Shown here one piece after another: positions 2,497 through 30,295 of a stretch of 64,000 nucleotides of DNA. The number at the start of each line of letters is the position of its first letter. Within the stretch, counting starts at the first letter, position 1. The notes beneath the pieces are model-generated. The model was not told where the DNA came from and did not search any database. It was given only the letters and a program-made list of their open reading frames with translations. A program made the translations under genes and the position numbers. The stretch is from Candidatus Moraniibacteriota bacterium (GTDB lineage Bacteria > Patescibacteriota > Minisyncoccia > Moranbacterales > GWC2-37-73), in the NCBI GenBank assembly GCA_036845785.1, contig DAIUDF010000002.1, forward strand, positions 4,552-68,551. The letters are read 5' to 3'.

Positions 2497-2682
2497 CAGG
2501 AAACATTTTTATATTTGAAATTACATCTTAAAACAGGAAAGATGGCCACTATTTGCCCCAAAACGACATTTCTTATATAATAAGAAAGGAGTTTTTTAGC
2601 CTAATTTTAACAAAAAATTCCTTAGGAAGCGAAATAATAATTAATCAAAAGTAAGCTTGGAGTCCTTAATAATAGGGGCCCA

Positions 2683-2710
2683 ATCTTATTTAACAGGGTC
2701 AATGGAAAAG
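2683..2710 (+). repeat. copy 1 of the 'AATCTTATTTAACAGGGTNAATGGAAAA' motif, overlapping the GT2 start codon
   Basis: Same motif as on the minus strand at 30294-30320 (one mismatch over 28 nt); core TTATTTAACAGGG also at 30346 and 30484. Confidence 0.7.
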
Positions 2711-3711: not shown

Positions 3712-5040
3712 ATGAAGATTGCAGTCATTGGAACAGGTTATGTGGGTTCAGTTACCGGTGCATGTTTTGCCGAAATGGGCAATAATGTGGTTTGTGTCGA
3801 CAAAGATCAAAAAAAAGTGGATCAATTTGCCAGCGGCAAAGTTCCTTTGCATGAAAACGGCTTGGATGAAATTGTTGAACGCAACTTGAAGAATAAAAAC
3901 CTTTCCTTCACTACAAATTTGGAGGAAGCGATCAAGGAAAATGACATTATTTTTATTGCAGTTGGAACTCCTCCAAATGAAGATGGTAGTGCAGATCTCA
4001 GCCATGTTTTGGATGTTGCAAAATCAATCGGGCAAACAATGGACCACCCTTTGATTATCATTGACAAATCTACGGTTCCAGTCGGTACGGCTGAGTTAGT
4101 CAGGAAAACTATCTCTGGTGAACTTGAAAAGCGTGGCGAAAAAATCGAATTCAATGTTGTCAGCAATCCAGAATTTTTGGCGCAAGGAACAGCCGTCAAG
4201 GATTTTTTAGAGCCAAGCCGGATTGTTGTCGGATCAGATAATGCTGAAACCATAAAAATATTGCAGGATATGTATGCTCCGTTTACCCGCCGAGAGGGCA
4301 GGTTTTTTGCCATGGATCAAAAAACAGCTGAAATTGTTAAATATGCTTCCAATTGTTTCTTGGCGGCCAAAATTTCTGTCAATAATGAACTGGCAAACAT
4401 CTGCGCCAAGGCTGGGGCTGATTTTGACAATGTCCGCAAAGCCATGGGCGCAGATCCAAGAATCGGAGAACCTTTTATGTATGCCGGTCCTGGATTTGGA
4501 GGCTCATGCTTTCCAAAAGACGTAAAAGCTCTAATAAAAACTGCTAAAGATCTAGGATATGATGCTGAAATGTTCAGGCAAACATTAGTTACAAATGAAA
4601 AACAAAAATTCGTTTTGTCTCAAATGGTTATTGATAAATTTGGAGAAGATCTGAAAGGCAAAACATTCTCTGTTTGGGGGCTGGCTTTCAAGGCAGGCAC
4701 GGATGATATGCGCGAATCTTCAGCGCTGACAATCATTAACGAACTTATTAAGCACGGCGCTAAGATCCAGGCTTATGATCCGGAAGCTATGCATATGGCC
4801 AAGTGGCCGGAATATTTTGGCGATAATCCAAACATAACCTATCTTGAAGACAAATATAGCGTGCTAAAAGATGCCGATGCCTTGCTTGTTGTGACTGAAT
4901 GGAAAGATTTCAGGGCGCCTGATTTTGAAGAAATTAAAAAACTTTTGCATCGTCCCGTGATTTTTGACGGTCGTCTGCTTTATGATCCGAAAAAAATGAA
5001 AGAACTCGGGTTTGAGTATAAATCGATAGGAAGAGGGTAG
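3712..5040 (+). CDS. ugd: UDP-glucose 6-dehydrogenase
   Basis: N-terminal 'IAVIGTGYVGSVTGACFAEMG' Rossmann motif and the catalytic 'GFGGSCFPKD' signature of the UDP-glucose/GDP-mannose dehydrogenase family; 442 aa. Confidence 0.8.
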   Translation: MKIAVIGTGYVGSVTGACFAEMGNNVVCVDKDQKKVDQFASGKVPLHENGLDEIVERNLKNKNLSFTTNLEEAIKENDIIFIAVGTPPNEDGSADLSHVLDVAKSIGQTMDHPLIIIDKSTVPVGTAELVRKTISGELEKRGEKIEFNVVSNPEFLAQGTAVKDFLEPSRIVVGSDNAETIKILQDMYAPFTRREGRFFAMDQKTAEIVKYASNCFLAAKISVNNELANICAKAGADFDNVRKAMGADPRIGEPFMYAGPGFGGSCFPKDVKALIKTAKDLGYDAEMFRQTLVTNEKQKFVLSQMVIDKFGEDLKGKTFSVWGLAFKAGTDDMRESSALTIINELIKHGAKIQAYDPEAMHMAKWPEYFGDNPNITYLEDKYSVLKDADALLVVTEWKDFRAPDFEEIKKLLHRPVIFDGRLLYDPKKMKELGFEYKSIGRG

Positions 5041-5052
5041 GATTATGTAGCT

Positions 5053-5841
5053 ATGAGATATGTATTAATATTATTAATATCACTTTTTATTTTTGTCTTG
5101 GAATTTTCGTATTCACAAGCTTTTAGTTTGGGGATAATTACGGATATTCATGCTGGCGGTTCAAAAGATGTTGAAAGATCGGAGAAAAACATTATGTACC
5201 CAAGTCGATATTGCATCAATCTCGAGAGAATAAAAAAATCAGGGGTTGATTATATATTGTCTTTAGGGGATAACACTTTGAATGGGAAAGAATCAGAAGC
5301 CAAGAAGGCGCTAAAATGCATGAAGGGTTATGACGTTTTATGGGTGAAGGGAAACCATGACAAAGAAGTTGCCTGGCAATTTTTTAGAACTCCCAATTAT
5401 TACAGCAAGCAAATTGAAAATTGGAAGATAATAGTTTTGGATTCTTCAAAAATTGATCCCAGTAGTTCAGGCGGTTTTCGAGATGATCAGCTAGAATGGC
5501 TGAAAAAAGAGTTAAATGAAAATGATTCAAATGATATTGAAAATATATTTATAGCGATGCATCACAATGTTTTTGAAAAATTTGCCCTTTTTCCCAGTCC
5601 CGGATTCCTCAACATTCTTTTTCCTCAATTTTCCGAACCGATCCAGCTGGAACGGATAAATCTTGTATATAAAAAATTTATAGAAATAATAGAATCAAAC
5701 AATAAAGTCAGGTATGTCTATTCCGGGCACCTTCATTTGAATAATAGGTGTCTCCAGATGGGTAACATAGAATATTGTTCTGTTCCGTCTGTTTCTACGA
5801 TGAATTACGAAGGCTACTTCAAGGAGCTGTCATTAGAATAA
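5053..5841 (+). CDS. secreted calcineurin-like metallophosphoesterase
   Basis: Signal peptide, then 'DIHAGG', 'GDN', 'GNHD' and 'GHLH' metallophosphatase motifs. Confidence 0.65.
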   Translation: MRYVLILLISLFIFVLEFSYSQAFSLGIITDIHAGGSKDVERSEKNIMYPSRYCINLERIKKSGVDYILSLGDNTLNGKESEAKKALKCMKGYDVLWVKGNHDKEVAWQFFRTPNYYSKQIENWKIIVLDSSKIDPSSSGGFRDDQLEWLKKELNENDSNDIENIFIAMHHNVFEKFALFPSPGFLNILFPQFSEPIQLERINLVYKKFIEIIESNNKVRYVYSGHLHLNNRCLQMGNIEYCSVPSVSTMNYEGYFKELSLE

Positions 5842-5856: not shown

Positions 5857-7491
5857 ATGAAAAAATTTTTTGATAAAGTTAAAGAAAAAAAATTCTTCTG
5901 GTTTTTATTTGCTTGTATTTTAATACTAGGGATATTTCTAAGAACATATAATTTTCATGACTGGCTAAGATTCAGCATGGATCAATCGAGAGATGCCCTT
6001 ATAATAAGCAAAGCAATTAGTGGGGAAGAAAAGCTCCCCCTTTTGGGACCGCTTGCAGGAGGAACAGACTTTCACCTGGGTCCTGCCTATTATTATTTTT
6101 CCTATTTGTCCGCTAAGATTTTTGGAAACGAGCCTGACAAAATGGCGTTTCCCAGCCTGTTTTTTTCGATTCTTGCGATGCCTCTTCTGTTTGTCTTCTT
6201 GAGAGAATATTTTGACAGGAAAATTTCTCTCATTTTAATGGCAATCATGAGCATTTCGTATTTTTCCATTGTTTATTCAAGATTTTCTTCAAATCCGAAC
6301 ATTACACCATTTTTTGTTTTACTTTTGCTGTATACTTTTTTAAAGGTGCTCAATAGGAAAAAAGATAATGATTGGCTGTGGTTTTCTTTAATGGGAATGG
6401 CATTGGGAATTGGAATCCAGCTTCACACGACTCTTCTGGTTATTTTACCGTTTGCCACTCTAGCTGTCTTTGCTTACTTATTTAAGAAATACGGTGGGAA
6501 AATGATTAAAGGCTTTTTTGTTGTTCTGGCTTTTGCATTAATCCTTAATTCGGGGCAGATCGCCAATGAAATTAAAACAGATGGAGCAAACACCAAAGCT
6601 TTCTTTAAAGGCATTGAAAAAAAGAGCGGAGGAGAGTCTTTCACAAAGAGACTTCTCCTGATCTCATCTTGTCAAGCAAGGGCTAATTCAAATATAATCT
6701 CTTCCTTGCCTACAATTGAAAATTGCTCTAAGAATTACGATTTGTCAAAACCAGCCCCAAAAGAACAGCTGGGAGATATGATAAGCAGCAGATATCCAAG
6801 GAGGGCGGTTTTTTGGTCGGGAATAGTTTTTTCAATACTGTTTTCCTTGTTTGGGTATGCGTTGCTTGTTTTTTATTTTTTGAAAGAGAAGGAAGAAAAA
6901 GCTAAAAATTTTTTGGGAACCGTTCTGCTTTTCAATTCCATCTCGCTGGTTTTTCTTTTTCCTATAACCTTATATATTTCGATAAATTATTTCATATTTT
7001 TATTTTTCGTTCCCTTTGTTCTTCTCGGGCTTTTTTATAAGTTTCTGACAGAGAAATTTGGGAATCTAGGCAGGAATGTCTTTTTTGCCGTTATCTTTAT
7101 CCTGCTCTGCTCCTCTTTTATGGTGGACAGGAATGCTTATCGTAAATATGCGAATGGTCTTAATAATAATGTGGGCAACAGCGACCTGGAAGAAGTGGAA
7201 GAGATTTTTTCTTATATGCTGGAGAAATCATCAAAAAATCCGGTGCTGCTCAGCGGAAGGATAGGATATGTTGAAAGATTTTCAGAGCCACTTGTTTATT
7301 TCTTTTCGGTCTCAGGTAAAGAAATTTTAGAACTTAAGTCAAACAGCATAAGCAATCTGGAAGTTTCAGAAGTTTTTTATATACAAAAAAAAGGATCCGA
7401 AGACATAAAAAAAGATAAAATTGTTGACGGTTTTTCGGTGACCGACGGCAAAAGATTCAAGGCTGTGGACGTGTATTTCATAAAAAAATAA
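5857..7491 (+). CDS. GT-C fold membrane glycosyltransferase, ArnT/PMT-like (GT39/GT83 family), paralog A
   Basis: Multi-TM N-terminal half with the conserved loop 'RTYNFHDWLRFSMDQSRDA' and 'RFSSNPN'. Strongly paralogous to 11672, 13449 and 15176. Confidence 0.55.
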   Translation: MKKFFDKVKEKKFFWFLFACILILGIFLRTYNFHDWLRFSMDQSRDALIISKAISGEEKLPLLGPLAGGTDFHLGPAYYYFSYLSAKIFGNEPDKMAFPSLFFSILAMPLLFVFLREYFDRKISLILMAIMSISYFSIVYSRFSSNPNITPFFVLLLLYTFLKVLNRKKDNDWLWFSLMGMALGIGIQLHTTLLVILPFATLAVFAYLFKKYGGKMIKGFFVVLAFALILNSGQIANEIKTDGANTKAFFKGIEKKSGGESFTKRLLLISSCQARANSNIISSLPTIENCSKNYDLSKPAPKEQLGDMISSRYPRRAVFWSGIVFSILFSLFGYALLVFYFLKEKEEKAKNFLGTVLLFNSISLVFLFPITLYISINYFIFLFFVPFVLLGLFYKFLTEKFGNLGRNVFFAVIFILLCSSFMVDRNAYRKYANGLNNNVGNSDLEEVEEIFSYMLEKSSKNPVLLSGRIGYVERFSEPLVYFFSVSGKEILELKSNSISNLEVSEVFYIQKKGSEDIKKDKIVDGFSVTDGKRFKAVDVYFIKK

Positions 7492-7561
7492 CTTTTTGAT
7501 TTAATCATCCAAAAATGGTATAAATAATTCTATAAGTCTTTAATTTTTCTAAAACATCAAT

Positions 7562-8734
7562 ATGAAGATAATCTTTTTTAATTATGAATTTCCGCCACTG
7601 GGCGGTGGAGCTGGCAACGCTTCCTTCTATATGTTACGTGAATATACCAAGAATCCTGATATTCAGGTAGATTTCGTCACGTCTTCCATAGATGAAAAAC
7701 AGCATCTGGAAAAAATGGGCAGCAACATTGCAATTCACCGATTGCCAATTGGGAAAAATCCCGACAATATCCACTATCAATCCCAAAAAGAACTTTTGAA
7801 ATACACTTGGGAAGCTTATAAATTTTCAAAGAAGTTAGCTAAAGAAAATAAATATGATTTAACTCACTCTTTTTTTTCGGTGCCATGTGGCGTGATCTCA
7901 TTGCTTTTAAAAAGAAAATTCGGAATTCCTTATATTATATCGCTGCGAGGTTCGGACGTTCCGGGCTATAGTGAAAGATTCACGGCTTTATATAAAGTCA
8001 TTACTCCGATCATAAAAAAAATATGGAAAGAAGCTTATTTTGTGATAGCCAATAGCCAAGGTTTAGCTGAGCTTGCCCTGAAATCCAAGCCAGAAAAAGA
8101 AATCGGCATAATTCCCAACGGCATTGATACTAAAGAATTTTTTCCAGCTCCTGAAAAAAATGAGGCGGATAAGTTTACGATTATCTGTGTTTCACGCGTC
8201 ACCCCGCGCAAAGGAATACGTTTCTTAATTCAGGCTTTTAATATTTTGTCTAAACGCTATGATTATCTCCGCTTGATTATTGTCGGAGATGGAAATGAAC
8301 GTGCATCACTCGAAGATTTAGTGCAGACCTTGGGACTCAAAGAAAAAGTTTTATTTACAGGACCTGTTTTGCATGAAAAAGTTTTGGAATATTATCAAAA
8401 AGCCAATATTTTTGCTTTGCCATCAATGAACGAAGGTATGAGCAACACCATGTTGGAAGCCCTGGCTTGCGGTTTGCCCCTGATTGCAACTAATACAGGG
8501 GGGACAAAAGAATTGATTGAGGAGGGACAAAATGGCTTTATTGTAAAAATGAAAGAAGCTAATGATTTGGCGGAAAAAATTGAAAAATTCTTGTTGGACA
8601 AAAATTTGGAAGCCAGAATGGGTCAAGCTAGTCGGGAACTAGCAGAGAAACTCGATTGGTCGGTGGTAGCTAATGAATATTTTGCTTTATATCAAAAAAC
8701 AGTTAATTTGCCAAAGATAAAGCAAGGAGAATAA
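7562..8734 (+). CDS. glycosyltransferase family 4
   Basis: 'MLEALACGLPLIATNTGGTKELIEEGQNGFIV'; paralog of 1333..2496. Confidence 0.75.
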   Translation: MKIIFFNYEFPPLGGGAGNASFYMLREYTKNPDIQVDFVTSSIDEKQHLEKMGSNIAIHRLPIGKNPDNIHYQSQKELLKYTWEAYKFSKKLAKENKYDLTHSFFSVPCGVISLLLKRKFGIPYIISLRGSDVPGYSERFTALYKVITPIIKKIWKEAYFVIANSQGLAELALKSKPEKEIGIIPNGIDTKEFFPAPEKNEADKFTIICVSRVTPRKGIRFLIQAFNILSKRYDYLRLIIVGDGNERASLEDLVQTLGLKEKVLFTGPVLHEKVLEYYQKANIFALPSMNEGMSNTMLEALACGLPLIATNTGGTKELIEEGQNGFIVKMKEANDLAEKIEKFLLDKNLEARMGQASRELAEKLDWSVVANEYFALYQKTVNLPKIKQGE

Positions 8735-8740
8735 AATAAA

Positions 8741-9673
8741 ATGCTAAATATTAAAAAATGGCTTAAATTTATTTTGAAATTAATTGTCAGTCTGGCTTTT
8801 GTTGCTTGGCTTATTTTTAAGGTTGATTGGCAGGAAGTTCTTTTTTATTTTGAAAAAATTTCGCTTTGGCAAACTCTCTTGTATATAGCAGTGGTTATCC
8901 TGAGTATTACGGTGTCTTCTTATAAATGGAAAATTTTAGTCGAATTTAAAAAATTCAATGTGCCACTTGAAAAAGCTTTTCAATTGTATCTGGCCGGAAT
9001 TTTTATCAATAATTTCATGCCGTCTTTCATTGGCGGAGATACTTACAAAGCCTATCAGCTAGGTAAAGAAAAGAAAGAATATGTTTCAGCTGCTACTAGC
9101 GTTGTTATGGATAGAATAACCGGGCTTTTGGGAGCTATGTTACTCTCAGTTTTTTTTGCTCTTTTTAACTGGGGCGTTGTTTCAAAATACCAAGTTTTGA
9201 TTATTATTTTAGGTATAATAATTGCGTCTTTGGTGGCCGTAATTATTTTATTAATCGCAGCCAGGCTTTCTTTTTGGGAAAAAATTTCCAAATATATACC
9301 GGAAAAAGTGCTTAGAATCATTAGAGACTTGCTGCATTATGTGAGCGATAGAAAAATGATGTTCAAAATATTGGTTTTGTCGCTGATTTTTAACTTTATT
9401 GGTCTGGCGGTTGCCAACTATGTTTTGTTTTGGGGCTTGGGAATAGAAATTGATATGCTAAACTATTTGACAGTTATATTTTTAATCAGCATCGTTTCTT
9501 CAATTCCGATTAGCATAAATAACATAGGCATTAAAGAATGGGCCTACGTTACATTTTTTGGTTTTTTCGGAGTGGCTTCTTCGGGAGTGGTGGCGGTGGC
9601 ACTTCTTAGCCGGGTGATCCAAATGGTTATCAGTTTCGCAGCAGTTCCGTTTTATTTGAAAAACAAAAAATGA
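8741..9673 (+). CDS. flippase-like / lysylphosphatidylglycerol-synthase-TM-domain family membrane protein (TIGR00374-like)
   Basis: ~8 TM helices and a 'SFIGGDTYKAYQLGK' loop. Strong SD (AAGGAGA) before the ATG. Confidence 0.45.
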   Translation: MLNIKKWLKFILKLIVSLAFVAWLIFKVDWQEVLFYFEKISLWQTLLYIAVVILSITVSSYKWKILVEFKKFNVPLEKAFQLYLAGIFINNFMPSFIGGDTYKAYQLGKEKKEYVSAATSVVMDRITGLLGAMLLSVFFALFNWGVVSKYQVLIIILGIIIASLVAVIILLIAARLSFWEKISKYIPEKVLRIIRDLLHYVSDRKMMFKILVLSLIFNFIGLAVANYVLFWGLGIEIDMLNYLTVIFLISIVSSIPISINNIGIKEWAYVTFFGFFGVASSGVVAVALLSRVIQMVISFAAVPFYLKNKK

Positions 9674-9695
9674 CAATTTGCAAATTAAAAATTAA

Positions 9696-9722
9696 AAAAC
9701 GCTCTTACTCGGGCGTTTTTTG
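9696..9722. terminator. bidirectional hairpin terminator between convergent genes
   Basis: AACGCtC ... GgGCGTT stem with a T-run. Lies between 8741..9673(+) and 9743..11575(-). Confidence 0.4.
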
Positions 9723-9742
9723 TTAGAAATATTTTAAAGAAA

Positions 9743-11575
9743 TTATTTGTAAAGCATGTTCGCCGGAACTATTTTAACATAGTTTTCTTCTCGTCCGCCT
9801 ATGATAACTTTCTTTATATAGTTTTCGGTTAGATATGCTTCCTTAAGATCAATGATGCTGTCAACGCCTGGAGCAAGTTTAAATGTCTTGGATTTTCTTC
9901 CGGAAGAAGCAATGACATAGTCGAAATGATAGGATTTAAGATCCTTTTTGCTGTATCCAATTACACATTTTCCCACAAATTCTGCGCAGACAGCGCCTTT
10001 GTCCGACCATATAACAATACTCCTGGCATCGGGCAGGGAATTCAGATATCTGGCTGTTTCATAGCTTCCATCACCCATATCTTTGTAATTTAGGAGGTAT
10101 TTTTGAGGAAGAAGAGGAGAAGCGAAAGCAAAATAGAAAGGACGAATTGAAAAAATTCCAATCAGTGAAATTGTAAAAACTATAATAATCGCAAGAATTC
10201 GTGAAACATACTTTCTGATTTTTTCTAGAGAAATTATTTGTGATAACCCAATGGCACTAATTATAAGGGCCAGAGGATAGAGCGTAATTTGATATCGGAC
10301 AGTTGCCGCAACGTTATTAACCGAAGAAGCAAAATAATAGAAAAGGATAAAAATTGAAAAATATAAAATTATACAGGCTTCCAAATTGTAAGTAGCTTTT
10401 CTTCTCAGGTTTTTATACAGAGCAAAAATCAAAGCAATCAGAGCCAGAGGACATATTCCAAAAATCAAGCTGTATGTGTCAGCAAGAATTGCTCCAACGT
10501 AAGAATTGAAAATATTTGATGCGCCAATGCCTTTCGGAGAAGAAAGAATTGAAACAAAGTCAAAAGGTTTCATTCCTAGATATGTGTCCAATATCGCAAA
10601 AATTATCACAAAAAGAAAAATTGCCGAAACAATTTGGACAAAATAGTGCCTGTATCTGGAGAAAAAATTCAGGATAAATTGCATCACTTTATTTTTTAAA
10701 GCAAAAATATCAAAAACTATAAAGGCAAAAACGCCCACAAAAAGCGGCCAAGTTGTTTTAAATGCCTGGCTCAAGAAAGTTCCTTTTAAAAGCACATTAA
10801 AATTAACCCAAGTTGCTGGATAGAAGACAAAAAAGATGGCAACAGAAACACCAACTATTATCAGATAATTTATAAAAGATTTTTTAAGATATTTTTGAAG
10901 CGGGGGTTTTTCTTCAGAAAAAATGTATTCGAGAAATGGAAGCATAAAGAAAAAAATGTACAGAATATTTGCGACATACTTAGTAAGAAGCGCCAATCCC
11001 ATAAAAAATCCGCTCAAAATAAGATAGGATTTTTTTTCTTCTTTTTTGAAAACAAAATAGCTTAAAAGAGAGAGTGGCAGGAAAATCCATAGCAGTGAAT
11101 CAGGATTTATTATAAGGGAAACCCCAAAGATGATAGGAGAAAAACTAATGAGAATAAATCCAAAAAGAGCGATAGTATTTCCGAAAAGTTTCTTCAGAAA
11201 AAAATAAAAAACTAAAAGCATCATTGTGCAAAACAAGAAAATTGGCAAGCGAAAATAAAAATTTATAGCTCTTATATGCCCAAGTTGTTCATCTGTTTTT
11301 TGCTCATCACGCAGATATTTATATTGCATCGGATCGTATTTCAAAAGACCAAAGCCGGACAAAATTGCCACGGTTATCCCGGGTTTATCATTCACACTTG
11401 TAGATTTCCATTTATAATTTTTGACTGCATTCCAAAATTTTGAAGTTCTCCCATATGTCCAATAGGGCTCGTCTACAGCAGAATATATTCCCAATCTTGA
11501 AAAACCTAAAAATAAATTTATGGCTAAAATAAGAGCTATTATTATTGGTGCAACTATTTTTTTGAGCATGTTCAT
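9743..11575 (-). CDS. GT-C fold glycosyltransferase, ArnT/PMT_2-like (GT39/83) with a 'DE' motif
   Basis: 610 aa polytopic. The first extracytoplasmic loop carries 'VDEPYWTY', the DE motif of PMT/ArnT enzymes. Confidence 0.6.
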   Translation of the reverse strand: MNMLKKIVAPIIIALILAINLFLGFSRLGIYSAVDEPYWTYGRTSKFWNAVKNYKWKSTSVNDKPGITVAILSGFGLLKYDPMQYKYLRDEQKTDEQLGHIRAINFYFRLPIFLFCTMMLLVFYFFLKKLFGNTIALFGFILISFSPIIFGVSLIINPDSLLWIFLPLSLLSYFVFKKEEKKSYLILSGFFMGLALLTKYVANILYIFFFMLPFLEYIFSEEKPPLQKYLKKSFINYLIIVGVSVAIFFVFYPATWVNFNVLLKGTFLSQAFKTTWPLFVGVFAFIVFDIFALKNKVMQFILNFFSRYRHYFVQIVSAIFLFVIIFAILDTYLGMKPFDFVSILSSPKGIGASNIFNSYVGAILADTYSLIFGICPLALIALIFALYKNLRRKATYNLEACIILYFSIFILFYYFASSVNNVAATVRYQITLYPLALIISAIGLSQIISLEKIRKYVSRILAIIIVFTISLIGIFSIRPFYFAFASPLLPQKYLLNYKDMGDGSYETARYLNSLPDARSIVIWSDKGAVCAEFVGKCVIGYSKKDLKSYHFDYVIASSGRKSKTFKLAPGVDSIIDLKEAYLTENYIKKVIIGGREENYVKIVPANMLYK

Positions 11576-11639
11576 TTTATATTATTATGTGACAATTCTA
11601 ACATAATTTAAGCCTTTTTTACAAGCTATAAACATCTTT

Positions 11640-11671
11640 TACAAAAAGATTTTTTCTGCTATTATTTACTT
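11640..11671 (+). promoter_or_regulatory. putative sigma70 promoter for GT-C paralog B
   Basis: TTTACA - 16/17 bp - TATTAT immediately upstream of the ATG at 11672. Confidence 0.35.
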
Positions 11672-13405
11672 ATGATAAAGAGCACAAAAAAATGGACAGT
11701 GGTTGCCTTATTTATTGTTATTGTTGGGGCAATATTTGTTAGAACCTACAATTTCAATGACTGGCTCTATTTTAAGATGGATCAATCAAGAGATGCATTT
11801 TTAATCGACAACATAGCTGAGAATGGACCGGGGTATCTGCCTCTTTTAGGAGCTAGAGCCGGAGCAACTGAAGTAGAAAAAGGCTTTTTGCGACTGGGAC
11901 CTATTTTCTATTATTTTCAATATATTTCAACCCAGATCTTTCATTCAACTGAACCGGCTGTCATGGCTTATCCCGATTTATTTTTTTCGGTAGCGGCAAT
12001 TATTCTCTTATATTTTTTTGCCAGGCTTTATTTTTCTCGCAAATATTCACTGATGATTATGGCGATGTATGCTTTTTCGTTCATTATCATCCAATATTCG
12101 CGTTTTGCTTGGAATCCAAATTCGTTGCAGTTTTTTCTTCTGCTTAGCTTCTATGGGATGCTGAGATTTTTCAGGGAACAAAATGAGATAAAAAAATATC
12201 TTTGGCTCGGGCTTTGGATCTTGGGTATAGTGGTCGGTTCACAATTGCATTTTTTCGGTTTTTTTGGGCTAGTTGGAATTTCCGGACTCTTTACATTGTT
12301 TAAATTGGAAGTATGGAAAAAGGAAAAAATTTGTTCATATTTCAGAAAAAAAACAATTCTCGAATTTTCCAAATATGCAGTGTTAGCACTTCTTATTTTT
12401 GTAGTTCTTTACTCGCCAGTTATAATTAGTGATATAAAAGAAGGGGGACAAAATTCAAGAAATTTTGTTTCAGCTTTAAGTTCAAAAGCAGAAAAGAAGC
12501 CGTTTACTAAAAAAATTACAAAAAACATTTCTGAAAATCTCAATTATTATTGCCTTATCACAACCTCGCAATGCTATGGAGAAGAAAATAATAAGGAAAA
12601 ATTTGCCATGATAATCACAGCCATAATTATTTTAGGCGGAATTATGGTGATTGTGCGTGCTTTCAGGAAGGAGGGTGATCCGGATAGGAAAAATTTTTTG
12701 GCGCTTATGCTCATTTGGATGGTGGTCTATTTTATTCTGATGATTCCGGTTTCATTCCAACTCCGTCCAAGGTTTTTTATTGTGGTCTTTGCAGTCCCAT
12801 TTATTTTACTCGGAATTATTTATGAATATTTAGCGGAAAAAATTAATCACAAAAGAGCAATTCAAATCAGTGTTTTAATCTCTATTTTGATAATCGCATG
12901 GAATTCTTATGGAACATATGCTTGGTTTTCTGAGCAAGCAAATTCACAAAAAGAAACAACGGAAATAAAAAGATCTCTCATTTTGAAATCCAAAGATGGG
13001 GTTTTGCTTTGGCATCTCCAAAATGCTGCTGATTGGATGTATTCTCAGCATGAACAAGGAAAAACTCTTTACTATTACGTTAAACCCGAACATGTACGTC
13101 CGATTGACTACTTGCTTTTCGAAAAACGTGACCCGAATTTGGTTTATGAAACAATGCAAATAAATGAAGATCCAAATGCGCAGTATTTTGCTATCACTCC
13201 TGCAAAAAACGGAATTGACCCAGTAGTTAAAAAATTTAACGAAAATGACATTTATCTTGTTCAGCAGAAACAGTTCGGACAAATTTTAGTTTCAGAGATA
13301 AATGTTAGCAATAGAAAAGTGTCTGCAACTTTTAAGTTTAACCGTCCAAAAACCAAGACAGATAGACTTTTTTGGAAAGATGTCTTTGGTAATAATAAAG
13401 AATAA
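11672..13405 (+). CDS. GT-C fold ArnT/PMT-like glycosyltransferase, paralog B
   Basis: 'VRTYNFNDWLYFKMDQSRDAFLI' and 'RFAWNPN' conserved with A, C and D; divergent C-terminal soluble domain. Confidence 0.55.
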   Translation: MIKSTKKWTVVALFIVIVGAIFVRTYNFNDWLYFKMDQSRDAFLIDNIAENGPGYLPLLGARAGATEVEKGFLRLGPIFYYFQYISTQIFHSTEPAVMAYPDLFFSVAAIILLYFFARLYFSRKYSLMIMAMYAFSFIIIQYSRFAWNPNSLQFFLLLSFYGMLRFFREQNEIKKYLWLGLWILGIVVGSQLHFFGFFGLVGISGLFTLFKLEVWKKEKICSYFRKKTILEFSKYAVLALLIFVVLYSPVIISDIKEGGQNSRNFVSALSSKAEKKPFTKKITKNISENLNYYCLITTSQCYGEENNKEKFAMIITAIIILGGIMVIVRAFRKEGDPDRKNFLALMLIWMVVYFILMIPVSFQLRPRFFIVVFAVPFILLGIIYEYLAEKINHKRAIQISVLISILIIAWNSYGTYAWFSEQANSQKETTEIKRSLILKSKDGVLLWHLQNAADWMYSQHEQGKTLYYYVKPEHVRPIDYLLFEKRDPNLVYETMQINEDPNAQYFAITPAKNGIDPVVKKFNENDIYLVQQKQFGQILVSEINVSNRKVSATFKFNRPKTKTDRLFWKDVFGNNKE

Positions 13406-13448
13406 GATAGTAAACTTAAAAATATAACAGGAGAGGAATAGGAAAAAT

Positions 13449-15158
13449 ATGCATAAAAAAATCATAAATTATTTCAAATTAGTTCCTAGACATGTCTGGG
13501 TTTTGGTTTTTATTATTGCCGTAGGAATATTTTTCCGTACCTACAATTTTCATGATTGGCTCCATTTTAAAGGCGACTCTTTTCGCGATGCAATTCTTGT
13601 TTCTCATTCCATCATAGACGGGCCAGCATTTCTTCCGCTTTTGGGTCCTCGTGCAGGAGGGACACAACTTCATCTTGGACCCATATTTTATTATTTCCAA
13701 TATATCTCAGGAACAATTTTTCAAAGCACCAGCCCTGTTGTGCTGGCTTTTCCGGATCTGTTCCTGTCTATTATGGCAATTCCTCTTTTCTTTTTAATGT
13801 TGCGAAGATATTTTTCTAAAAAAATTTCTTTGATTCTTACCGCCATGCTGGCAACTTGTTATATGGCTGTAGAATATGGAAGATTTGCCTGGAATCCAAA
13901 TTCAACCCCATTTTTTACGATATTATTTTTATATTCCTTGCTTAAGGCTTATGATTCTGAAAACAATCGTCAATATGCCTGGTTGGCAATTTCAGGGGGT
14001 GCACTAGCTATAGCCTCACAGCTTCATTTTAGCGCTTTCCTGGGTCTTCCAATTATATTTATCTTATTTGTTATTCTTAATTGGAAAAAATCTAAAAAAA
14101 TTATATTTTCCTGGAGATCTTTGCTGATATTTTTTGGAACCATCTTTGTCTTTTATATCCCGGTGATTATTTTTGAAGTTGTAACTCACGGAAAAAATAC
14201 ATTCTTGTTTTTCGATGCAGTCAATGGAAAGAGTTCAAACAGGGGATTGTGGAAAAATATAGTTCAAGAAACAAAAATGTTTTCAAAATATTTCTTATGG
14301 ATCGGGGCCGGAGTTTTTGAGGGCAAATGGTGGCAGGAGCTAGCAAGTAAATTTCTTGTTTTTGCCGGAATAGCCGCAAATCTTTTTCTTTTTAAGAAAG
14401 AAACAGATGAAAAGAAAAAAAGATTTCTTTTGCTGACTTTTATTTTTATGCTTGTCTATTTAGTCTTATATTTTCTTTTGGCTTTTGAAATAGAAAAATC
14501 TCGCTTCTTTCTTCCTTTAATAATCATGCCTTTTATTTTGGTAGGCTATCTTGCTTTACTTGCGGGCAAAACAAAATTTAAAAAAACATCCAATTTTTTT
14601 ATCGGAATTTTTATTATAGCGCTTATTTTTGGAAACGCTAGGTCAATAATGACTTGGTTTTCAGAAATGAAAGAATCAGAAACCGAGAGAGAGACTTCTT
14701 ATAAAGTATTGACAGAAAAGGATAAAAGTTTCTGGTGGACATGGGGGCGTTTCGAAAAAGCTGCAGACTATATGGATGAAAGTTGCCAAAAAAATGCCGT
14801 TTTCTTTTTGATGTCTAAAAAAACAAAAGACTATGACCATTCAATCGAGTATGCTTTGATTCAGAGAAACAGGAATCTCGCCATAGAATTGAAAGACAAA
14901 TTTAAAGAAAAATATGAAAATTATGATAGATGCTATTTTTATATTTCACTTGCAAAGGAAATATTACCTGATTTTGTCCAGCAGAAAAAGCATGACGAGC
15001 CTTTTTTTCTAGGAGACATGAAAATCACTCAGTGGTATCCAGAAAATGCGCTGCTGTCAGTTTCTCCGGCAAACAAAGATCCAGAAGAGCGAGATTCACT
15101 TGAAAAAATTATAGCATCCAAATATCCACGCTTGCAGTGGGGAGATTTATTTCAATAA
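13449..15158 (+). CDS. GT-C fold ArnT/PMT-like glycosyltransferase, paralog C
   Basis: 'FRTYNFHDWLHFKGDSFRDAILV', 'RFAWNPN'; divergent C-terminus. Confidence 0.55.
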   Translation: MHKKIINYFKLVPRHVWVLVFIIAVGIFFRTYNFHDWLHFKGDSFRDAILVSHSIIDGPAFLPLLGPRAGGTQLHLGPIFYYFQYISGTIFQSTSPVVLAFPDLFLSIMAIPLFFLMLRRYFSKKISLILTAMLATCYMAVEYGRFAWNPNSTPFFTILFLYSLLKAYDSENNRQYAWLAISGGALAIASQLHFSAFLGLPIIFILFVILNWKKSKKIIFSWRSLLIFFGTIFVFYIPVIIFEVVTHGKNTFLFFDAVNGKSSNRGLWKNIVQETKMFSKYFLWIGAGVFEGKWWQELASKFLVFAGIAANLFLFKKETDEKKKRFLLLTFIFMLVYLVLYFLLAFEIEKSRFFLPLIIMPFILVGYLALLAGKTKFKKTSNFFIGIFIIALIFGNARSIMTWFSEMKESETERETSYKVLTEKDKSFWWTWGRFEKAADYMDESCQKNAVFFLMSKKTKDYDHSIEYALIQRNRNLAIELKDKFKEKYENYDRCYFYISLAKEILPDFVQQKKHDEPFFLGDMKITQWYPENALLSVSPANKDPEERDSLEKIIASKYPRLQWGDLFQ

Positions 15159-15175
15159 TTATTAATACATAAAGC

Positions 15176-16825
15176 ATGTCTCTGAAAGATTTTCTAAAAA
15201 AAAGAGAACCTCAGATATTTGCAATAGCATTTGCCTTAATTTTGTTGCTGGGTATTTTTCTGAGGACCTACAACCATCATGATTGGCTCAGGTTTAATGC
15301 CGATCAGTCTAGGGATGCTCTGCTTGTGAATAATTTTCTTGAAGGAAAAATAGATTTGCCACTTTTAGGGCCAAAGGCCGGAGGAACATTTTTTAGTCTT
15401 GGGCCGATGTTCTATTATCTCCAAATTGCGTCAGCAAAAATATTCGGGACAACTCCTGACAAAATAGCGTATCCTGATCTTTTGTTTTCAATATTGGCAA
15501 TTCCTTTGCTGTATTTTTTAATGAGGATATATTTCAATAGATACGTTTCTTTTTCTTTAACAGGGCTTTTTAGTGTTTCAATGTTTGTGGTGCAATATTC
15601 TCGTTTTGCTTGGAATCCGAATGCCAGCCCATTTTTTGTTTTTCTTTTTCTATATTCACTCTTGATGCTGGCAAGCCTGGAAACAAAAAAGAAAATGTTT
15701 TGGGCATCTGTCGCAGGGATAGCTTTTGGAGCAGGGGTCCAACTCCATACGTTGCTGCTTATAATTATGCCGGCTATCGCAGTTTTATTTCTTGGATATT
15801 TTTGGAAAAAAAAGCTGATTTCAATAAAAAATTGCATTGCAATTTTTCTTATTGCTCTTGCGCTTAATACTCCGCAAATAATAAGTGAAATAAAAACAGA
15901 AGGACAGAATGTGCGCACATTTTTTGCAGGAACAATCAAGAAAACAGACGGGAAAGAGACTGTTTTAGAAAACCTTGCAAGTGATGCGGCATGCCAGATA
16001 CAGGCAAATTCATACATTATTTCTTCCTACGGCAACAGTGATAATTGCGGTGTGGATGTTATTTCAAGTTCTCTTAAAAAAGTAAAACATTTCGATAAAA
16101 AATTTTTGATAATCCTGGAACTTTTGCTTGGCACAATTTTTTCAATTGGAGGATTTTTGCTGTGGGGAAGAGCAGTTAAAAAAGAAAAAAATCAAGATAA
16201 AAAAATATTCCTTGTTTTACTGGGGACATATTTGTTAGCGGTTTTTGTTTTGCTTATACCGCTTGCTAATGAAATTTCACTCAGATTTTATCTTGCTTTA
16301 GAATTTGTTCCATTTATGCTTCTTGGCTTTTGGATTGTGGCAATCATCGAATGGACAAAAGAAAAATACAGAAAACATGTTGTTGTATTTCTAATCGTGG
16401 TGCTTCTCTTTTTGGCAGGCTGTAATATTTTTTCTGTGCAGGAATCTTTTGCAGCAGTTTCTGTTGAAGAAAAAATGGAAGATGCTGAATCTTTTATAAC
16501 ACTAGGAGAAACAGAGTTTATTTCCCGATATATTATTTCTCATTCAGGAGCGCAAAAAACAGTCTATGTTGAAGGGAAACAAATATATCTTTTTAAGTAT
16601 CTAAAGTCTATTGAATATTTCACAAGCCAAAGCGGAGTCAGCGTTAGACAAAAGTTAAAAGAAGAAGCTATTCCAGAAGGCGCAACTATTTTTATAATCG
16701 ATGACGCAAAATGGAAAGGAAATCTTAAAAAATCAATGCAAGAAACATACGAATCTTATGATGTAGAAGCATATGGACGCTTTTCGATAGCGATGATGCA
16801 GAAGAAAGAAATTATCAAAAATTAA
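15176..16825 (+). CDS. GT-C fold ArnT/PMT-like glycosyltransferase, paralog D
   Basis: 'LRTYNHHDWLRFNADQSRDALLV', 'RFAWNPN'. Shares an extra Cys-containing segment with paralog A. Confidence 0.55.
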   Translation: MSLKDFLKKREPQIFAIAFALILLLGIFLRTYNHHDWLRFNADQSRDALLVNNFLEGKIDLPLLGPKAGGTFFSLGPMFYYLQIASAKIFGTTPDKIAYPDLLFSILAIPLLYFLMRIYFNRYVSFSLTGLFSVSMFVVQYSRFAWNPNASPFFVFLFLYSLLMLASLETKKKMFWASVAGIAFGAGVQLHTLLLIIMPAIAVLFLGYFWKKKLISIKNCIAIFLIALALNTPQIISEIKTEGQNVRTFFAGTIKKTDGKETVLENLASDAACQIQANSYIISSYGNSDNCGVDVISSSLKKVKHFDKKFLIILELLLGTIFSIGGFLLWGRAVKKEKNQDKKIFLVLLGTYLLAVFVLLIPLANEISLRFYLALEFVPFMLLGFWIVAIIEWTKEKYRKHVVVFLIVVLLFLAGCNIFSVQESFAAVSVEEKMEDAESFITLGETEFISRYIISHSGAQKTVYVEGKQIYLFKYLKSIEYFTSQSGVSVRQKLKEEAIPEGATIFIIDDAKWKGNLKKSMQETYESYDVEAYGRFSIAMMQKKEIIKN

Positions 16826-16839
16826 TATTTTTTACATAA

Positions 16840-16866
16840 TAAAAACGCTCCGTAGGAGCGTTTTAA
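16840..16866. terminator. bidirectional terminator
   Basis: Perfect 8-bp stem AACGCTCC/GGAGCGTT with loop gta, flanked by A-run and T-run, between convergent genes. Confidence 0.55.
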
Positions 16867-16884
16867 AATATTTCTCAGAACTTT

Positions 16885-18414
16885 TTATGCTGCTGGTTCG
16901 TTGCCGGAAAGTTCTTCCTGAATTTCAACTTTCCTTTTCTTTTTAGCAATTATATGTTTGATATATTCCAGATCGTTCTTAGTGATTTCGCCCAAAACAT
17001 ATAAGATTAGCAGATATCCGGCAAATAGTATTACTGACCAAGCTATGAAAATAAATTCTCCTTTGGAAAAAAAGAGTGAAGCAGTAAACATCAGTCCGCC
17101 GGAAAAAATTATTTTCAGCAGGCTTTTAAGTTCGAGAATAACTCCGAAATCGCGTCTGACGTAGTGCAGGATTGCCAGCATAACCACAAAAGAAGTGATT
17201 GTGGTGGCGATTGCCGAACCGGCAATGCCATATTTATTGATCAGAATATAATTCAGAATTGTGTTGACAATGACTCCGAAAATGGAAATAAACATTGGAA
17301 TCTTGGTTTTGCCGGCGCCGTTCAAAACAAAACTCATGACATAAAAAATTGTCAGAAAACCGACGCCGTAGGCTAGAATTGACATCGGGAAAGCGGCGGC
17401 TAAATATTTGTGTCCGTAAAAAATTTGGATAATCGGTTCGGCAAATTGCGACATCAAAATTACCGAGGGCACCAGCAGGATCGTCATCAGCCGCATTGAT
17501 TGGCTGATAATTTTGTTGGTTTCGTCATGATTTTTTTCCGCCGTAGTTTTGGAAACGACAGGCAGCAGCATGATGGTCAGGGCGTAGAAAATATAGTAGG
17601 GAATGCGGCCGACAGTCAAAGCGCCATTATAGACTCCGGTTAAATAATCGTCATGCAAAATACCTTTGACCAAATATAAATCGATGCTGATTAAAAGTTC
17701 ATAAGCCAGAAAAAACAGGATAATCTGCCAGGCGTAGTTTATGAGTTTTTTGGTCTCAAATTGGCTCTCAAGGGCCAAATTTTGCGTTTTGGCGGCTTTT
17801 TTAAGCTCCTTGGTGTACTTGAGCTGGTCAAGCGCAAAAGCGATTAAAAAGACCAGAAATGCGGCCAAGGCATAACCCACGATCGAGCCTGGAACACGGA
17901 AAGCATAGGCCAGGCCGACAATGGCCGCTACCTTGAAAACAGAGCGCAGTGTCTTTAAAACTGACTGGACATTGAATTTGTGGAGGCCGGTGTAGAAAGA
18001 AAAGTAGAATGAGGCCATGGCAAAAGCCGGAATGATCAAAGTTGAAATTCTGAAAAGGGGAGTGAGACTTGGGTCGCCCAAAACATGGGAGATGAGAGGG
18101 GCTGAAAGAAAAAATATAATTGTAATTGCACCGATTAAAATCGTTTGCAAAACAATTGTTTTCTTTTTGATGGCCAGCACCAAGCGCGGGTTGGCTTCAA
18201 AAATCTCGCTGATATATTTGGCCATGGCGGTTGGGATGCCGTTGCCGATGAGAATGATGACCATGGTAGTCAAGGTCACAACTAGGCCATATCTGCCGTA
18301 ATCGGCAGGACCCAAAATCCTGCCCACCAAAGAGTGGATTACATAGCCGGAAAGATTGAAAATTATTTCCGAAACGACGAGCCAAAAAGTTGATCTAGCT
18401 AGGTTGGTTGACAT
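16885..18414 (-). CDS. polysaccharide biosynthesis / oligosaccharide flippase (Wzx, MOP superfamily)
   Basis: 509 aa with ~14 TM helices and the typical Polysacc_synt N-terminus 'ARSTFWLVVSEIIFNLSGYVIHSLVGRILGPADYG'. Confidence 0.6.
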   Translation of the reverse strand: MSTNLARSTFWLVVSEIIFNLSGYVIHSLVGRILGPADYGRYGLVVTLTTMVIILIGNGIPTAMAKYISEIFEANPRLVLAIKKKTIVLQTILIGAITIIFFLSAPLISHVLGDPSLTPLFRISTLIIPAFAMASFYFSFYTGLHKFNVQSVLKTLRSVFKVAAIVGLAYAFRVPGSIVGYALAAFLVFLIAFALDQLKYTKELKKAAKTQNLALESQFETKKLINYAWQIILFFLAYELLISIDLYLVKGILHDDYLTGVYNGALTVGRIPYYIFYALTIMLLPVVSKTTAEKNHDETNKIISQSMRLMTILLVPSVILMSQFAEPIIQIFYGHKYLAAAFPMSILAYGVGFLTIFYVMSFVLNGAGKTKIPMFISIFGVIVNTILNYILINKYGIAGSAIATTITSFVVMLAILHYVRRDFGVILELKSLLKIIFSGGLMFTASLFFSKGEFIFIAWSVILFAGYLLILYVLGEITKNDLEYIKHIIAKKKRKVEIQEELSGNEPAA

Positions 18415-18478
18415 AAATTAAATGACATGCTATTATTTTAAATTAAAAATCAAAAATAAAAAATGGGGAGGGAATTTG

Positions 18479-18811
18479 ATGAATACTTTTTTAGTTCTTT
18501 TAAAAATTGTAGGAGTGGTTGGTCCGATTTTGTTTTCTGTTTTAATAGCTTACAAAATTGTAGTAACCATGGGCACATTTTGTCAAGAAAGTTGCGGTTA
18601 CTTTAGCTTGGTATCAGTTGTGGCGGGCATAATGTATGCCGAACAGCTTTTATTGGTGGCTAAGCTAATGGAGAAACCTTTCTATGCTGGCGGACTTTTG
18701 TGCGGAATGATTATTTCAGTGACAATTTTTGCATGGCTAATGCATGCTTTGCTGAAAGATAATTTTTCCAGCGGACTTCATTTGTTATCTTTACGTGGAT
18801 TGATAATATAA
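18479..18811 (+). CDS. small multi-TM membrane protein (hypothetical)
   Basis: GGGGAGGG SD before the ATG at 18479. The track ORF from 18422 abuts the divergent neighbour and is less likely. Confidence 0.4.
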   Translation: MNTFLVLLKIVGVVGPILFSVLIAYKIVVTMGTFCQESCGYFSLVSVVAGIMYAEQLLLVAKLMEKPFYAGGLLCGMIISVTIFAWLMHALLKDNFSSGLHLLSLRGLII

Positions 18812-18843
18812 AAAAATTTAAAGGATAAAGGAGGAAAATATTT

Positions 18844-19176
18844 ATGTCGTTGTTTAAAAACATGAATCTGGAAAAGAGGAAGCTTCTTTTGGAAATTGCC
18901 AAAGAAGCAGAGGAAGAAACCCGCGAGCTTTTAGCGCATTTTAATAGCAAGGAACTCAGAGAAAGATGCCCTGACAGTACTGAAAGATTGAAAGCAAGCT
19001 GTCCCGAAAAGTTTATGGGAGGACCCATTTTTACAATGCGTTCCGCTCTCAAACTCAGAAAGGATGTCCTCACGGTTATTTTAAGAGGCTTTCTTAATGG
19101 AAAACACGACGATGAGGCTAAATTGCTGGATGAAAAATTATGCGCAGGAGTGAGAGGGCTTCTTGCCAGTCATTGA
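18844..19176 (+). CDS. hypothetical protein
   Basis: AAGGAGG SD 8 nt upstream; 110 aa; no recognisable domain. Confidence 0.4.
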   Translation: MSLFKNMNLEKRKLLLEIAKEAEEETRELLAHFNSKELRERCPDSTERLKASCPEKFMGGPIFTMRSALKLRKDVLTVILRGFLNGKHDDEAKLLDEKLCAGVRGLLASH

Positions 19177-19184: not shown

Positions 19185-19235
19185 CAAAATTCGCAAAAAC
19201 GCTTTCGGGTTTATAAAACCGGAAGCGCTTTTTTC
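19185..19235. terminator. bidirectional hairpin terminator overlapping the 3' end of 19211..19813
   Basis: GCGCTTTCGGGTTT ... AACCGGAAGCGC imperfect stem with T-runs on both sides. Confidence 0.35.
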
Positions 19236-23546: not shown

Positions 23547-23682
23547 AATATTCAGAAAATAATTTTTAATTTCCAATTTTTAATTTTTAATCAATTTCCA
23601 ATGTTTTAGTTTAAAAATCAAATTGCTGGCGTGCTTTTTTTGGCTTATATTAGGTATTATTTATGATTTTATGTTTAAAGCA

Positions 23683-27600: not shown

Positions 27601-27679
27601 GCCTAAATTATAACTTATTATTAGATTTATTTCAAGAAAAAAGCCGCCAGAAAATTGGCGGCTTAAAACGTGTATAAAA

Positions 27680-28633: not shown

Positions 28634-28637
28634 ATTG

Positions 28638-28868: not shown

Positions 28869-29013
28869 AAATTTTTTGAAATTCGAAATTCGAATCTCGA
28901 AATTCTAAACAAATTATAATTTTTAAAATTATAAATTCAAAATGTTTCGAATTTTTGTCATTTGAATTTTGATATTGTTTAGGATTTCGGATTTTGTGCT
29001 TCGAATTTTTATT

Positions 29014-30294: not shown

Positions 30295-30295
30295 T

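Follow-up and report, generated by a model that had tools for sequence, protein, structure and literature searches.

O-antigen, arabinan and the wall polymers of Gram-positive bacteria are established products of pathways that combine a polyprenyl-phosphate-sugar synthase, a flippase and a membrane glycosyltransferase of the GT-C class (PMC11127046), and the highlights of PMC8035078 present the same three-component logic. Here we describe a stretch of 64,000 nucleotides (referred to below as the window) from a Candidatus Moraniibacteriota bacterium (GenBank assembly GCA_036845785.1, contig DAIUDF010000002.1, positions 4,552 to 68,551), which devotes about 8.6 kb to five confirmed open reading frames (ORFs) for GT-C proteins. 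Four of them, on the plus strand, encode a family of paralogs. We consider it probable, at roughly 0.6, that these four act outside the membrane, where they would use polyprenyl-phosphate sugars to extend or decorate a glycan of the envelope. The five ORFs, each named in the following by its first coordinate, are:

5857 to 7491, plus strand: GT-C paralog 1, 544 amino acids (aa), orthogroup J; PMT_2 E = 6e-14, 424 bits with the family hidden Markov model (HMM); detached from the tandem trio
11672 to 13405, plus strand: GT-C paralog 2, 577 aa, orthogroup B, the conserved array head; PMT and PMT_2
13449 to 15158, plus strand: GT-C paralog 3, 569 aa, orthogroup E, a middle member; modelled with AlphaFold2 (AF2), with GT-C matches in Foldseek
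15176 to 16825, plus strand: GT-C paralog 4, 549 aa, orthogroup C, the conserved array tail; PMT_2
9743 to 11575, minus strand: fifth GT-C, GT39/PMT-like, single copy, 610 aa; PMT_2 and PMT above their cut-offs

The source organism belongs to the Patescibacteria of the candidate phyla radiation (CPR), bacteria with tiny genomes (about 1 Mb) for which attachment to a host is thought to be central to the lifestyle. One of the related loci used here, L064, comes from a complete genome of 1,048,819 bp. To our knowledge, the surface chemistry of CPR bacteria is essentially unknown, and we found no literature linking CPR bacteria or Moranbacteria with these GT-C enzymes or with arrays of them.

Comparison with described GT-C systems

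Among the three-component systems, we compared GtrA/GtrB/Gtr* of Shigella and Salmonella, GacI/J/K/L, CsbB/GtcA/YfhO, the lactococcal Csd system and the GT136 pentofuranose system. The window shares with them a family 2 glycosyltransferase (GT2) that resembles undecaprenyl-phosphate-sugar synthases and carries C-terminal transmembrane (TM) helices (its activity is predicted), candidate flippases, GT-C enzymes whose active sites are predicted to face outward, and a location in a polysaccharide cluster; the general logic is that set out in PMC11127046. It differs in the number of its GT-C genes, four plus one in the window and up to eight in tandem in its relatives, whereas the described systems usually have one. 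It differs further in its LPG_synthase_TM-like and Wzx-like proteins, which are present where no GtrA-type protein was found, and in the outward metallophosphoesterases that are interleaved with array genes.

The mycobacterial set, comprising the tandem EmbC/EmbA/EmbB, AftA-D, PimE and MptA/B/C, produces arabinan and lipomannan/lipoarabinomannan (LM/LAM) from decaprenyl-phosphate sugars. Several paralogous GT-Cs, some of them encoded in tandem, serve one envelope glycan there, as we infer for the window, and the mycobacterial pathway likewise includes cytoplasmic family 4 glycosyltransferases (GT4s), a polyprenyl-phosphate-sugar GT2 and a flippase step. The TM core of the array proteins is similar to that of AftA and AftB (E between 4e-4 and 6e-3), the match to EmbB being non-significant (E about 0.1). 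Sequence identity to the mycobacterial enzymes, in contrast, is 8-11%, and the array proteins are short (about 550 aa with 11 TM helices, against about 1,000-1,400 aa in Emb and AftD). Unlike Emb and AftD, they have no C-terminal carbohydrate-binding module (CBM) but an alpha/beta domain of 110-165 aa that lacks a significant structural match, and their host is a monoderm CPR bacterium.

ArnT (GT83) and the PMTs (GT39) share PMT_2 with all five proteins, and PMT with 11672 and 9743. The N-in topology and the outward soluble C-terminal domain also recall ArnT, and an ArnC-like GT2 and a UDP-glucose 6-dehydrogenase (Ugd) lie nearby; genes of the ArnA or ArnB type were absent among the ORFs scanned, a set that does not exhaust the window. 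ArnT, however, has 13 TM helices where the array proteins have 11, and the best ArnT score in the window is 19 bits against a cut-off of 567. Unlike the PMTs, the array paralogs possess neither a DE motif nor MIR domains. The last system compared is the Pgf system of Streptococcus mutans (PgfS, PgfM1, PgfE, PgfM2), which transfers sugar from a lipid carrier on the outside of the cell (PMC12041528). As in Pgf, the locus combines a PgfS-like GT2 with several membrane proteins of GT-C type, but Pgf has two membrane glycosyltransferases only, and its acceptors are Ser/Thr-rich proteins, of which none is evident here.

Sequence, fold and topology of the four paralogs

The four plus-strand proteins are 32-38% identical over the whole TM part, and their alignment contains 80 invariant columns, among them those of RTYN.(H/N)DWL.F..D..RDA, LPLLG..AG.T, LGP..YY and (S/G)RF..NPN. 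Even 5857 and 11672, which are among the most distant pairs, find each other in BLASTP at E = 3e-59 over about 400 aa, and a chance or low-complexity origin of the shared blocks is thereby excluded. At the DNA level the blocks are just 61-77% identical. Their similarity therefore points to old duplicates under constraint at the protein level, and the same figure led us to reject recent duplication and gene conversion among the window paralogs. On this sequence evidence we regard the four proteins as true paralogs with a conserved N-terminal core, in agreement with the preliminary description of this DNA, and the last three genes are indeed directly tandem, with intergenic gaps of 43 and 17 nt.

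With 52.9, 30.9, 35.0 and 45.2 bits, the four paralogs exceed the gathering threshold of Pfam PF13231 (PMT_2; 26.1 bits), as does 9743 with 52.8 bits; 11672 and 9743 pass Pfam PMT (PF02366) as well. A scan of 185,579 species genomes by motif gave 392 related stretches, and 67 loci (L001 and so on) were retrieved, nearly all of them from metagenome-assembled genomes of Moraniibacteriota. The best homologs come from organisms named Candidatus Moranbacteria, Moraniibacteriota or Parcubacteria and are annotated as "glycosyltransferase family 39 protein" or "ArnT-like". In a library of 1.84 billion representatives, 588 proteins match the family profile at E ≤ 1e-30, a number that rises to 4,339 at E ≤ 1e-3; judging from these searches the array family is a modest, lineage-restricted branch within the large PMT_2 superfamily.

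An AF2 model was built for the 13449 protein only, on 97 sequences; the other three paralogs align with 13449 across the TM part, and residues of the family are numbered as in this protein (P13449). The model (pLDDT 92.8, pTM 0.93) has 11 TM helices, long loops with short helices at residues 32-100 and 246-293, and an alpha/beta C-terminal domain at about residues 413-569. When it was compared with the PDB by Foldseek, the top matches were GT-C enzymes only, namely AglB, STT3, PglB, ArnT (5ezm), ALG12/ALG9, Pmt1/2/4 and AftA/AftB, all at a probability of 1.00, with a best E of 2e-8 and identities of 8-16%; EmbB stood lower in the list (probability 0.99). Query-normalised TM-scores ranged from 0.30 to 0.52 and were about 0.45-0.52 for the full-length oligosaccharyltransferase, ArnT and ALG matches, and the best reciprocal scores were those of ArnT 5ezm (0.52/0.55) and chicken ALG12 (0.52/0.60). 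Fold and Pfam scores together support the earlier assignment of the four array proteins to the GT-C membrane glycosyltransferases of the PMT_2 (ArnT/PMT-like) type.

TM helices were taken from the AF2 model and from lysine and arginine counts, Kyte-Doolittle calling having been dropped as too noisy. In the short loops of the window paralogs, 18-24 lysine and arginine residues lie on the side predicted to be cytoplasmic and 1-3 on the other; the 236 family members average 19.1 and 2.7. This bias supports a modelled topology with the N-terminus inside, 11 TM helices and the C-terminus outside. Most orthogroups have exactly two cysteines in the outer loop between TM7 and TM8, whereas the 13449 type and three other groups have their pair in the C-terminal domain instead, the pattern expected for extracytoplasmic disulfides. 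The outward position previously predicted for the divergent C-terminal domain is thus borne out by the model, and neither the charge bias nor the cysteine pairs fit a cytoplasmic one.

In place of the DE motif in the first loop, which is absent from all four array paralogs, the family has D-x3-D; of its two acidic residues in the first extracytoplasmic loop, D43 is conserved in 235 and D47 in 234 of the 236 members. H193 (236/236), Q191 and R30 (234/236 each) are likewise family-wide, as are G66 and G77; two further outward residues, R145 (R in 223 of 236, H in the remainder) and N149 (219/236), come close to invariance. All family-wide invariant residues face outward, lying either within an outer loop or where a TM helix meets the outer side, as R30 does at the end of TM1. 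By this conservation all copies look catalytically competent, with D43 and D47 as candidate catalytic residues, and D43, D47, H193, Q191 and R30, together with the near-invariant R145, are ready targets for mutagenesis. A search for MIR domains (Pfam, E ≤ 0.01) found none in the five GT-C proteins, which excludes a eukaryotic-type PMT only; bacterial Pmts likewise lack MIR domains.

The C-terminal domain

The C-terminal 250 aa or so of the paralogs had been described as unrelated in sequence, a view that has to be revised. Residues from about 261 to 405 form TM8-TM11, where the paralogs are still 20-29% identical. What remains is a soluble domain comprising the last 110-165 aa, which is the least conserved part between paralogs (11-21% identity); this part alone cannot be aligned pairwise, and no significant similarity was found in pairwise comparisons of the paralogs. 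Comparison of the orthogroup profiles of the domain with hhalign, however, gave probabilities of 99.1% for 11672 and 13449, 96.6% for 11672 and 15176, 98.9% for 15176 and 5857, and 88% for 11672 and 5857; 13449 and 15176 reach 64% directly, and both reach a third group at 96-99.6%. Since profile-profile comparison links the orthogroups in this way, we take the C-terminal domains to be homologous versions of one diverged ancestral domain of about 110 aa, to which the 11672 and 13449 types add an extension of about 50 aa. The isolated domain was modelled at a pLDDT of 83.7 and is not recognisable as a CBM, MIR or TPR module. Among orthologs it is 58-74% identical in the 11672 type and 29-51% identical in the other types.

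Orthogroups and array composition in Moraniibacteriota

Orthogroups were defined by average-linkage clustering of the 236 full-length family members, and their letters are labels of this analysis. An HMM search over all ORFs in the 67 loci counted one to eight family members per locus (median four in those 46 loci that span 15 kb or more), mostly in head-to-tail tandem. The four window genes fall into the following groups:

Orthogroup B, window gene 11672: 37 loci, usually first in the array
Orthogroup C, window gene 15176: 33 loci, usually last, before the convergent Wzx gene
Orthogroup E, window gene 13449: 13 loci
Orthogroup J, window gene 5857: 8 loci

Identity is 43-54% within orthogroups as against 28-35% between them. 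This comparison of amino-acid conservation within and between orthogroups was used in place of dN/dS, because at protein identities of 32-38% between paralogs and 55-67% between the closest orthologs synonymous sites are saturated. A typical array starts with B and ends with C while its middle varies (for example B-E-C, B-E-A-C-L, B-E-F-H-A-C or B..F-A-H-A-A-C); in some genomes orthogroup A is present in two or three adjacent copies. The order of the window, B-E-C (11672-13449-15176), recurs in L049, L025 and L050.

Orthologs exist for each paralog separately and keep its C-terminal domain; the paralogs are therefore, on sequence grounds, old, fixed and sub-functionalised, and their duplications predate the divergence of these genomes. 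What varies between lineages is which middle members, and how many of them, stand between a conserved head and a conserved tail. Copy number differs between relatives, but the paralogs of the window are themselves old and fixed.

The fifth GT-C, ORF 9743

The fifth protein proved to be a further GT-C, as had been noted from its VDEPYW motif. The motif occupies aa 34-39, after TM1, and all six of its residues, D35 and E36 included, are invariant in 43 orthologs; a DE motif at this position is typical of PMTs (D77/E78 in Pmt1). Orthologs of 9743 are 50-72% identical and hence far more conserved than the array family, and homologs occur in 45 of the 67 loci, where, as 9743 does in the window, they usually diverge from the array head. 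A place for 9743 as fifth member of the array family was rejected, BLASTP against the array members being non-significant and hhalign giving 60% over about 105 columns; this remote alignment covers the TM2-TM6 core and sets NPDS opposite NPNS. By these comparisons 9743 belongs to a separate GT39-like GT-C subfamily that seems only remotely related to the array. Two homologs of 9743 (P0219 and P0224, 1060 aa each) have an extra polygalacturonase/pectate-lyase-like domain (PF00295, PF12708), which hints at a polysaccharide, possibly one containing uronic acid, as the substrate of 9743.

Gene neighbourhood

The following features surround the GT-C genes:

2657 to 3637, plus strand: GT2, an ArnC/GtrB/PgfS-like candidate polyprenyl-phosphate sugar synthase; Glycos_transf_2, two C-terminal TM helices in the translation
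3712 to 5040, plus strand: Ugd, for supply of UDP-glucuronic acid; TIGR03026 at 453 bits, above the cut-off; TuaD/AglM-like
5053 to 5841, plus strand: metallophosphoesterase with an N-terminal signal or anchor; Pfam Metallophos, N-terminal hydrophobic segment; directly precedes 5857
7562 to 8734, plus strand: GT4, a cytoplasmic glycosyltransferase; Glycos_transf_1 E = 3e-47; always paired with the 8741 gene
8741 to 9673, plus strand: flippase-like membrane protein of the LPG_synthase_TM/TIGR00374 type; PF03706 E = 6e-39, TIGR00374 at 81 bits against a cut-off of 43.2
16842 to 16864, no strand assigned: hairpin with a perfect 10-bp stem, AAAACGCTCC-TAC-GGAGCGTTTT, flanked by A/T runs, between the convergent genes 15176-16825 and 16885-18414
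16885 to 18414, minus strand: flippase of the Wzx/MurJ (MOP) superfamily; Polysacc_synt, MurJ and MatE Pfam matches
19819 to 20910, minus strand: second metallophosphoesterase, with an N-terminal TM anchor, an acidic linker and a catalytic domain; Metallophos E = 3e-18

The GT2 encoded at 2657 matches ArnC (NF007986, E = 3.6e-52, below the equivalog cut-off) and PgfS (E = 2e-43, also below the cut-off) over its full length and is likely to be the maker of a lipid-linked donor. Ugd is syntenic in L001 and L049, the pair of GT4 and flippase-like genes occurs in 17 of the 67 loci, and a Wzx-like gene, typically straight after the tail paralog, in 33. By family membership the product of 8741-9673 is a candidate flippase for a lipid-linked sugar or a glycolipid. 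The hairpin at 16842-16864 is a plausible bidirectional terminator, by match to the consensus. The conserved gene order is (ArnC/GtrB-like GT2), (Ugd), GT4, flippase-like gene, 9743-type GT-C on the minus strand, and the array from head to tail; after the tail follow, all on the minus strand, the Wzx-like gene, a thymidylate-kinase-like gene, GT4 and RtcB, and a DUF6541 gene.

The catalytic domains of both metallophosphoesterases are predicted from their N-terminal segments to face outward. Homologs of 5053 stand beside or between array genes in L001, L002, L004, L005 and L006, and homologs of 19819 within the arrays of L001, L002 and L004. In these last three loci the pair of a metallophosphoesterase gene and a 5857-type gene lies inside the array, in the order B-metallophosphoesterase-J-metallophosphoesterase-C (the interleaved genes of L001 are at 9109-9972 and 11645-12628). 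In L049, the closest relative of the window, the pair is absent between Ugd and GT4, and none was present in the 21.6 kb retrieved. Because of its place inside the array in three loci and its absence from L049, the pair looks like a relocatable two-gene unit.

Several further genes lie beside the array. The thymidylate-kinase-like protein (200 aa, 19211-19813, minus strand; PF02223 E = 8e-11) is encoded next to the Wzx-like gene in 28 of the 67 loci. At 20916-23576 on the minus strand, a single ORF of 886 aa joins a GT4 (aa 1-385, approximately) to an RtcB RNA ligase (aa 437-884), which are separate neighbouring ORFs in related loci (in L001, for instance, 17959-19086 and 16448-17956); the joined ORF may be a genuine fusion, or else reflect a lost stop codon or a sequencing error. 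In 24 of the 67 loci the GT4 and RtcB genes share synteny with the GT-C array, odd company for glycan genes. The DUF6541/DUF1616 gene (24478-26400, minus strand) encodes a polytopic protein of 640 aa and is syntenic with the array in 16 of the 67 loci; that its product might be a sixth family member was not supported (hhalign probability 0.6%).

A second envelope-glycan block lies at 26476-36416 and contains genes for a GT4 (26476), an AglJ/PpgS-like polyprenyl-phosphate-sugar GT2 (27680), a second Ugd, of the UDP-glucose/GDP-mannose dehydrogenase type (29014), a GT4 (30603), a Wzy_C/O-antigen-ligase-like protein (32285-33970), a further GT4 (33998) and a LytR-CpsA-Psr (LCP) protein (35196-36416). 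Upstream of the glycan locus, on the plus strand, are a CYTH-domain ORF (161-679), for which no homolog was found in the 67 related loci, and an ORF (809-1174) whose product belongs to the "23S rRNA-intervening sequence protein" family.

A proposed role in envelope glycan assembly

We propose the following scheme for the action of the four paralogs, to which the tandem EmbCAB, Aft and Mpt enzymes of mycobacteria offer the closest analogies. The cytoplasmic ArnC/GtrB-type GT2 (2657-3637) would charge polyprenyl phosphate with a sugar taken from a nucleotide sugar; given the adjacent Ugd, UDP-glucuronic acid may be the origin of this sugar. A flippase, for which the LPG_synthase_TM-like (8741-9673) and Wzx-like (16885-18414) proteins are candidates, would then move the lipid-linked sugar to the outer leaflet. 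There, the GT-C active site would be formed by the first outward loop (D43 and D47), together with R30, Q191 and H193 and the near-invariant R145 and N149, and each GT-C may transfer sugar to a different position of one envelope glycoconjugate, the outward, orthogroup-specific alpha/beta C-terminal domain contributing to acceptor selection. The head (11672 type) and the tail (15176 type) would perform steps common to the lineage, and lineage-specific linkages may come from the middle members, namely 13449 and, together with its metallophosphoesterase, 5857. By analogy with mycobacterial arabinan and LM/LAM and with the three-component systems of Gram-positive bacteria, we favour as the likeliest acceptor a polysaccharide or lipoglycan that is linked to the wall or anchored by a lipid, because of the polysaccharide-type neighbourhood, the polygalacturonase-like fusion in 9743 homologs and the lack of a Ser/Thr-rich protein nearby.

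A number of observations weigh against this scheme. Just 17 of the 67 loci have an ArnC-like GT2 gene at a distance of 10 kb or less from the array, and a small flippase of the GtrA type was not found. The ArnT equivalog NF009784 was missed (19.1 bits in 5857, no match in the other proteins), and so was Agl23/TIGR03663 (26-42 bits in the four paralogs against a cut-off of 126.25, no match in 9743). The family profile found no relative among PDB sequences, a spurious bacteriorhodopsin at E = 0.6 being its only match. The model of the isolated C-terminal domain had no PDB match at E ≤ 0.001, the best being generic alpha/beta folds with TM-scores of at most 0.32, and for want of a significant structural match the part given to this domain in acceptor recognition is pure inference. 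We also know of no cultured Moranbacterium. Finally, the acceptor might be a protein, given that streptococcal GT-Cs of the PMT_2 and YfhO types glycosylate proteins (PMC12041528).

This last point leads to a serious rival, one that we consider possible though rather doubtful: each paralog could be a protein O-glycosyltransferase for different secreted or surface proteins (pilins, S-layer proteins or Ser/Thr-rich linkers) that are recognised by the C-terminal domain, on the model of actinobacterial Pmt and streptococcal PgfM1 and PgtC2. The matches to PMT and PMT_2, with PF02366 passed by 11672 and 9743, speak for it, as do the DE motif after TM1 of 9743 and the full-length similarity of the local GT2 to PgfS of the S. 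mutans Pgf pathway, and streptococcal GT-Cs modify the Ser/Thr-rich regions of many membrane-associated proteins (PMC12041528). Yet the array paralogs have D-x3-D instead of the DE motif, MIR domains are lacking in all five proteins, and the genes are set in surroundings of the polysaccharide type (Wzx, Wzy_C-like, LCP, GT4s and Ugd). A Ser/Thr-rich candidate acceptor was searched for in the window with shadow ORFs as the only result, and the polygalacturonase-like domain fused to some 9743 orthologs does not suit a protein substrate either.

The preliminary description had read the locus as an expansion of paralogs with variable acceptor-facing domains that diversifies surface decoration. Taken as a recent or ongoing process, of an arms-race type within or between strains, this now seems improbable. 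The strong divergence of the C-terminal domains between paralogs would fit it, as would the differences in array composition and copy number among genomes, the adjacent copies of orthogroup A and the shifting place of the metallophosphoesterase and 5857-type pair. The window paralogs, however, belong to orthogroups of their own that are found in 8-37 other loci, and orthologs in many genomes keep the C-terminal domain (up to 74% identity). Identity within orthogroups also exceeds that between them, the head-13449-tail order is common to several loci, and DNA identity between paralogs is low, neither gene conversion nor a recent duplication having left a trace in the window.

It is equally improbable that the paralogs are obligate partners in hetero-oligomers, some catalytic and others serving as scaffold or holding the acceptor as in Pmt1-Pmt2 or EmbA-EmbB: the genes are co-transcribed in close tandem, head and tail members co-occur in many loci, and Pmt1-Pmt2 (6p25) and the EmbB complex, which are known heteromers of GT-C enzymes, are among the structural matches, but the candidate catalytic residues are kept in essentially every member with no sign of dead subunits, and one to eight members per array fits independent enzymes better than a fixed complex.

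Starting from the preferred reading, that the paralogs are extracytoplasmic transferases for an envelope glycan, one may go further, to a proposal that we regard as speculative and on balance unlikely. The array would be a modular assembly line peculiar to Moraniibacteriota, with an initiating 11672-type and a finishing 15176-type GT-C, zero to six variable middle GT-Cs between them and outward, membrane-anchored metallophosphoesterases as partners; array content would directly encode the structure of a surface glycan anchored to lipid or wall, an LM/LAM-like lipoglycan primed by the GT4 and flippase-like pair.

Significance

We regard the enzymes as a lineage-specific and so far uncharacterised branch within a well-known class, and nothing points to a new mechanism; their enzymology is probably conventional GT-C chemistry. 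The value of the findings lies in annotating and prioritising a locus for the biology of the CPR envelope rather than in a new principle. The interleaved metallophosphoesterases and the pattern of head, middle and tail are the points worth following up. Throughout the class Moraniibacteriota a syntenic envelope-glycan locus with tandem GT-Cs is kept, which marks its product as important, and the head/middle/tail pattern offers a testable handle, in that array content would predict differences in the glycan between lineages. Should the assembly-line proposal prove true, this glycan would be a lineage-specific determinant of the interaction of these episymbionts, with their genomes of about 1 Mb, with hosts or phages.

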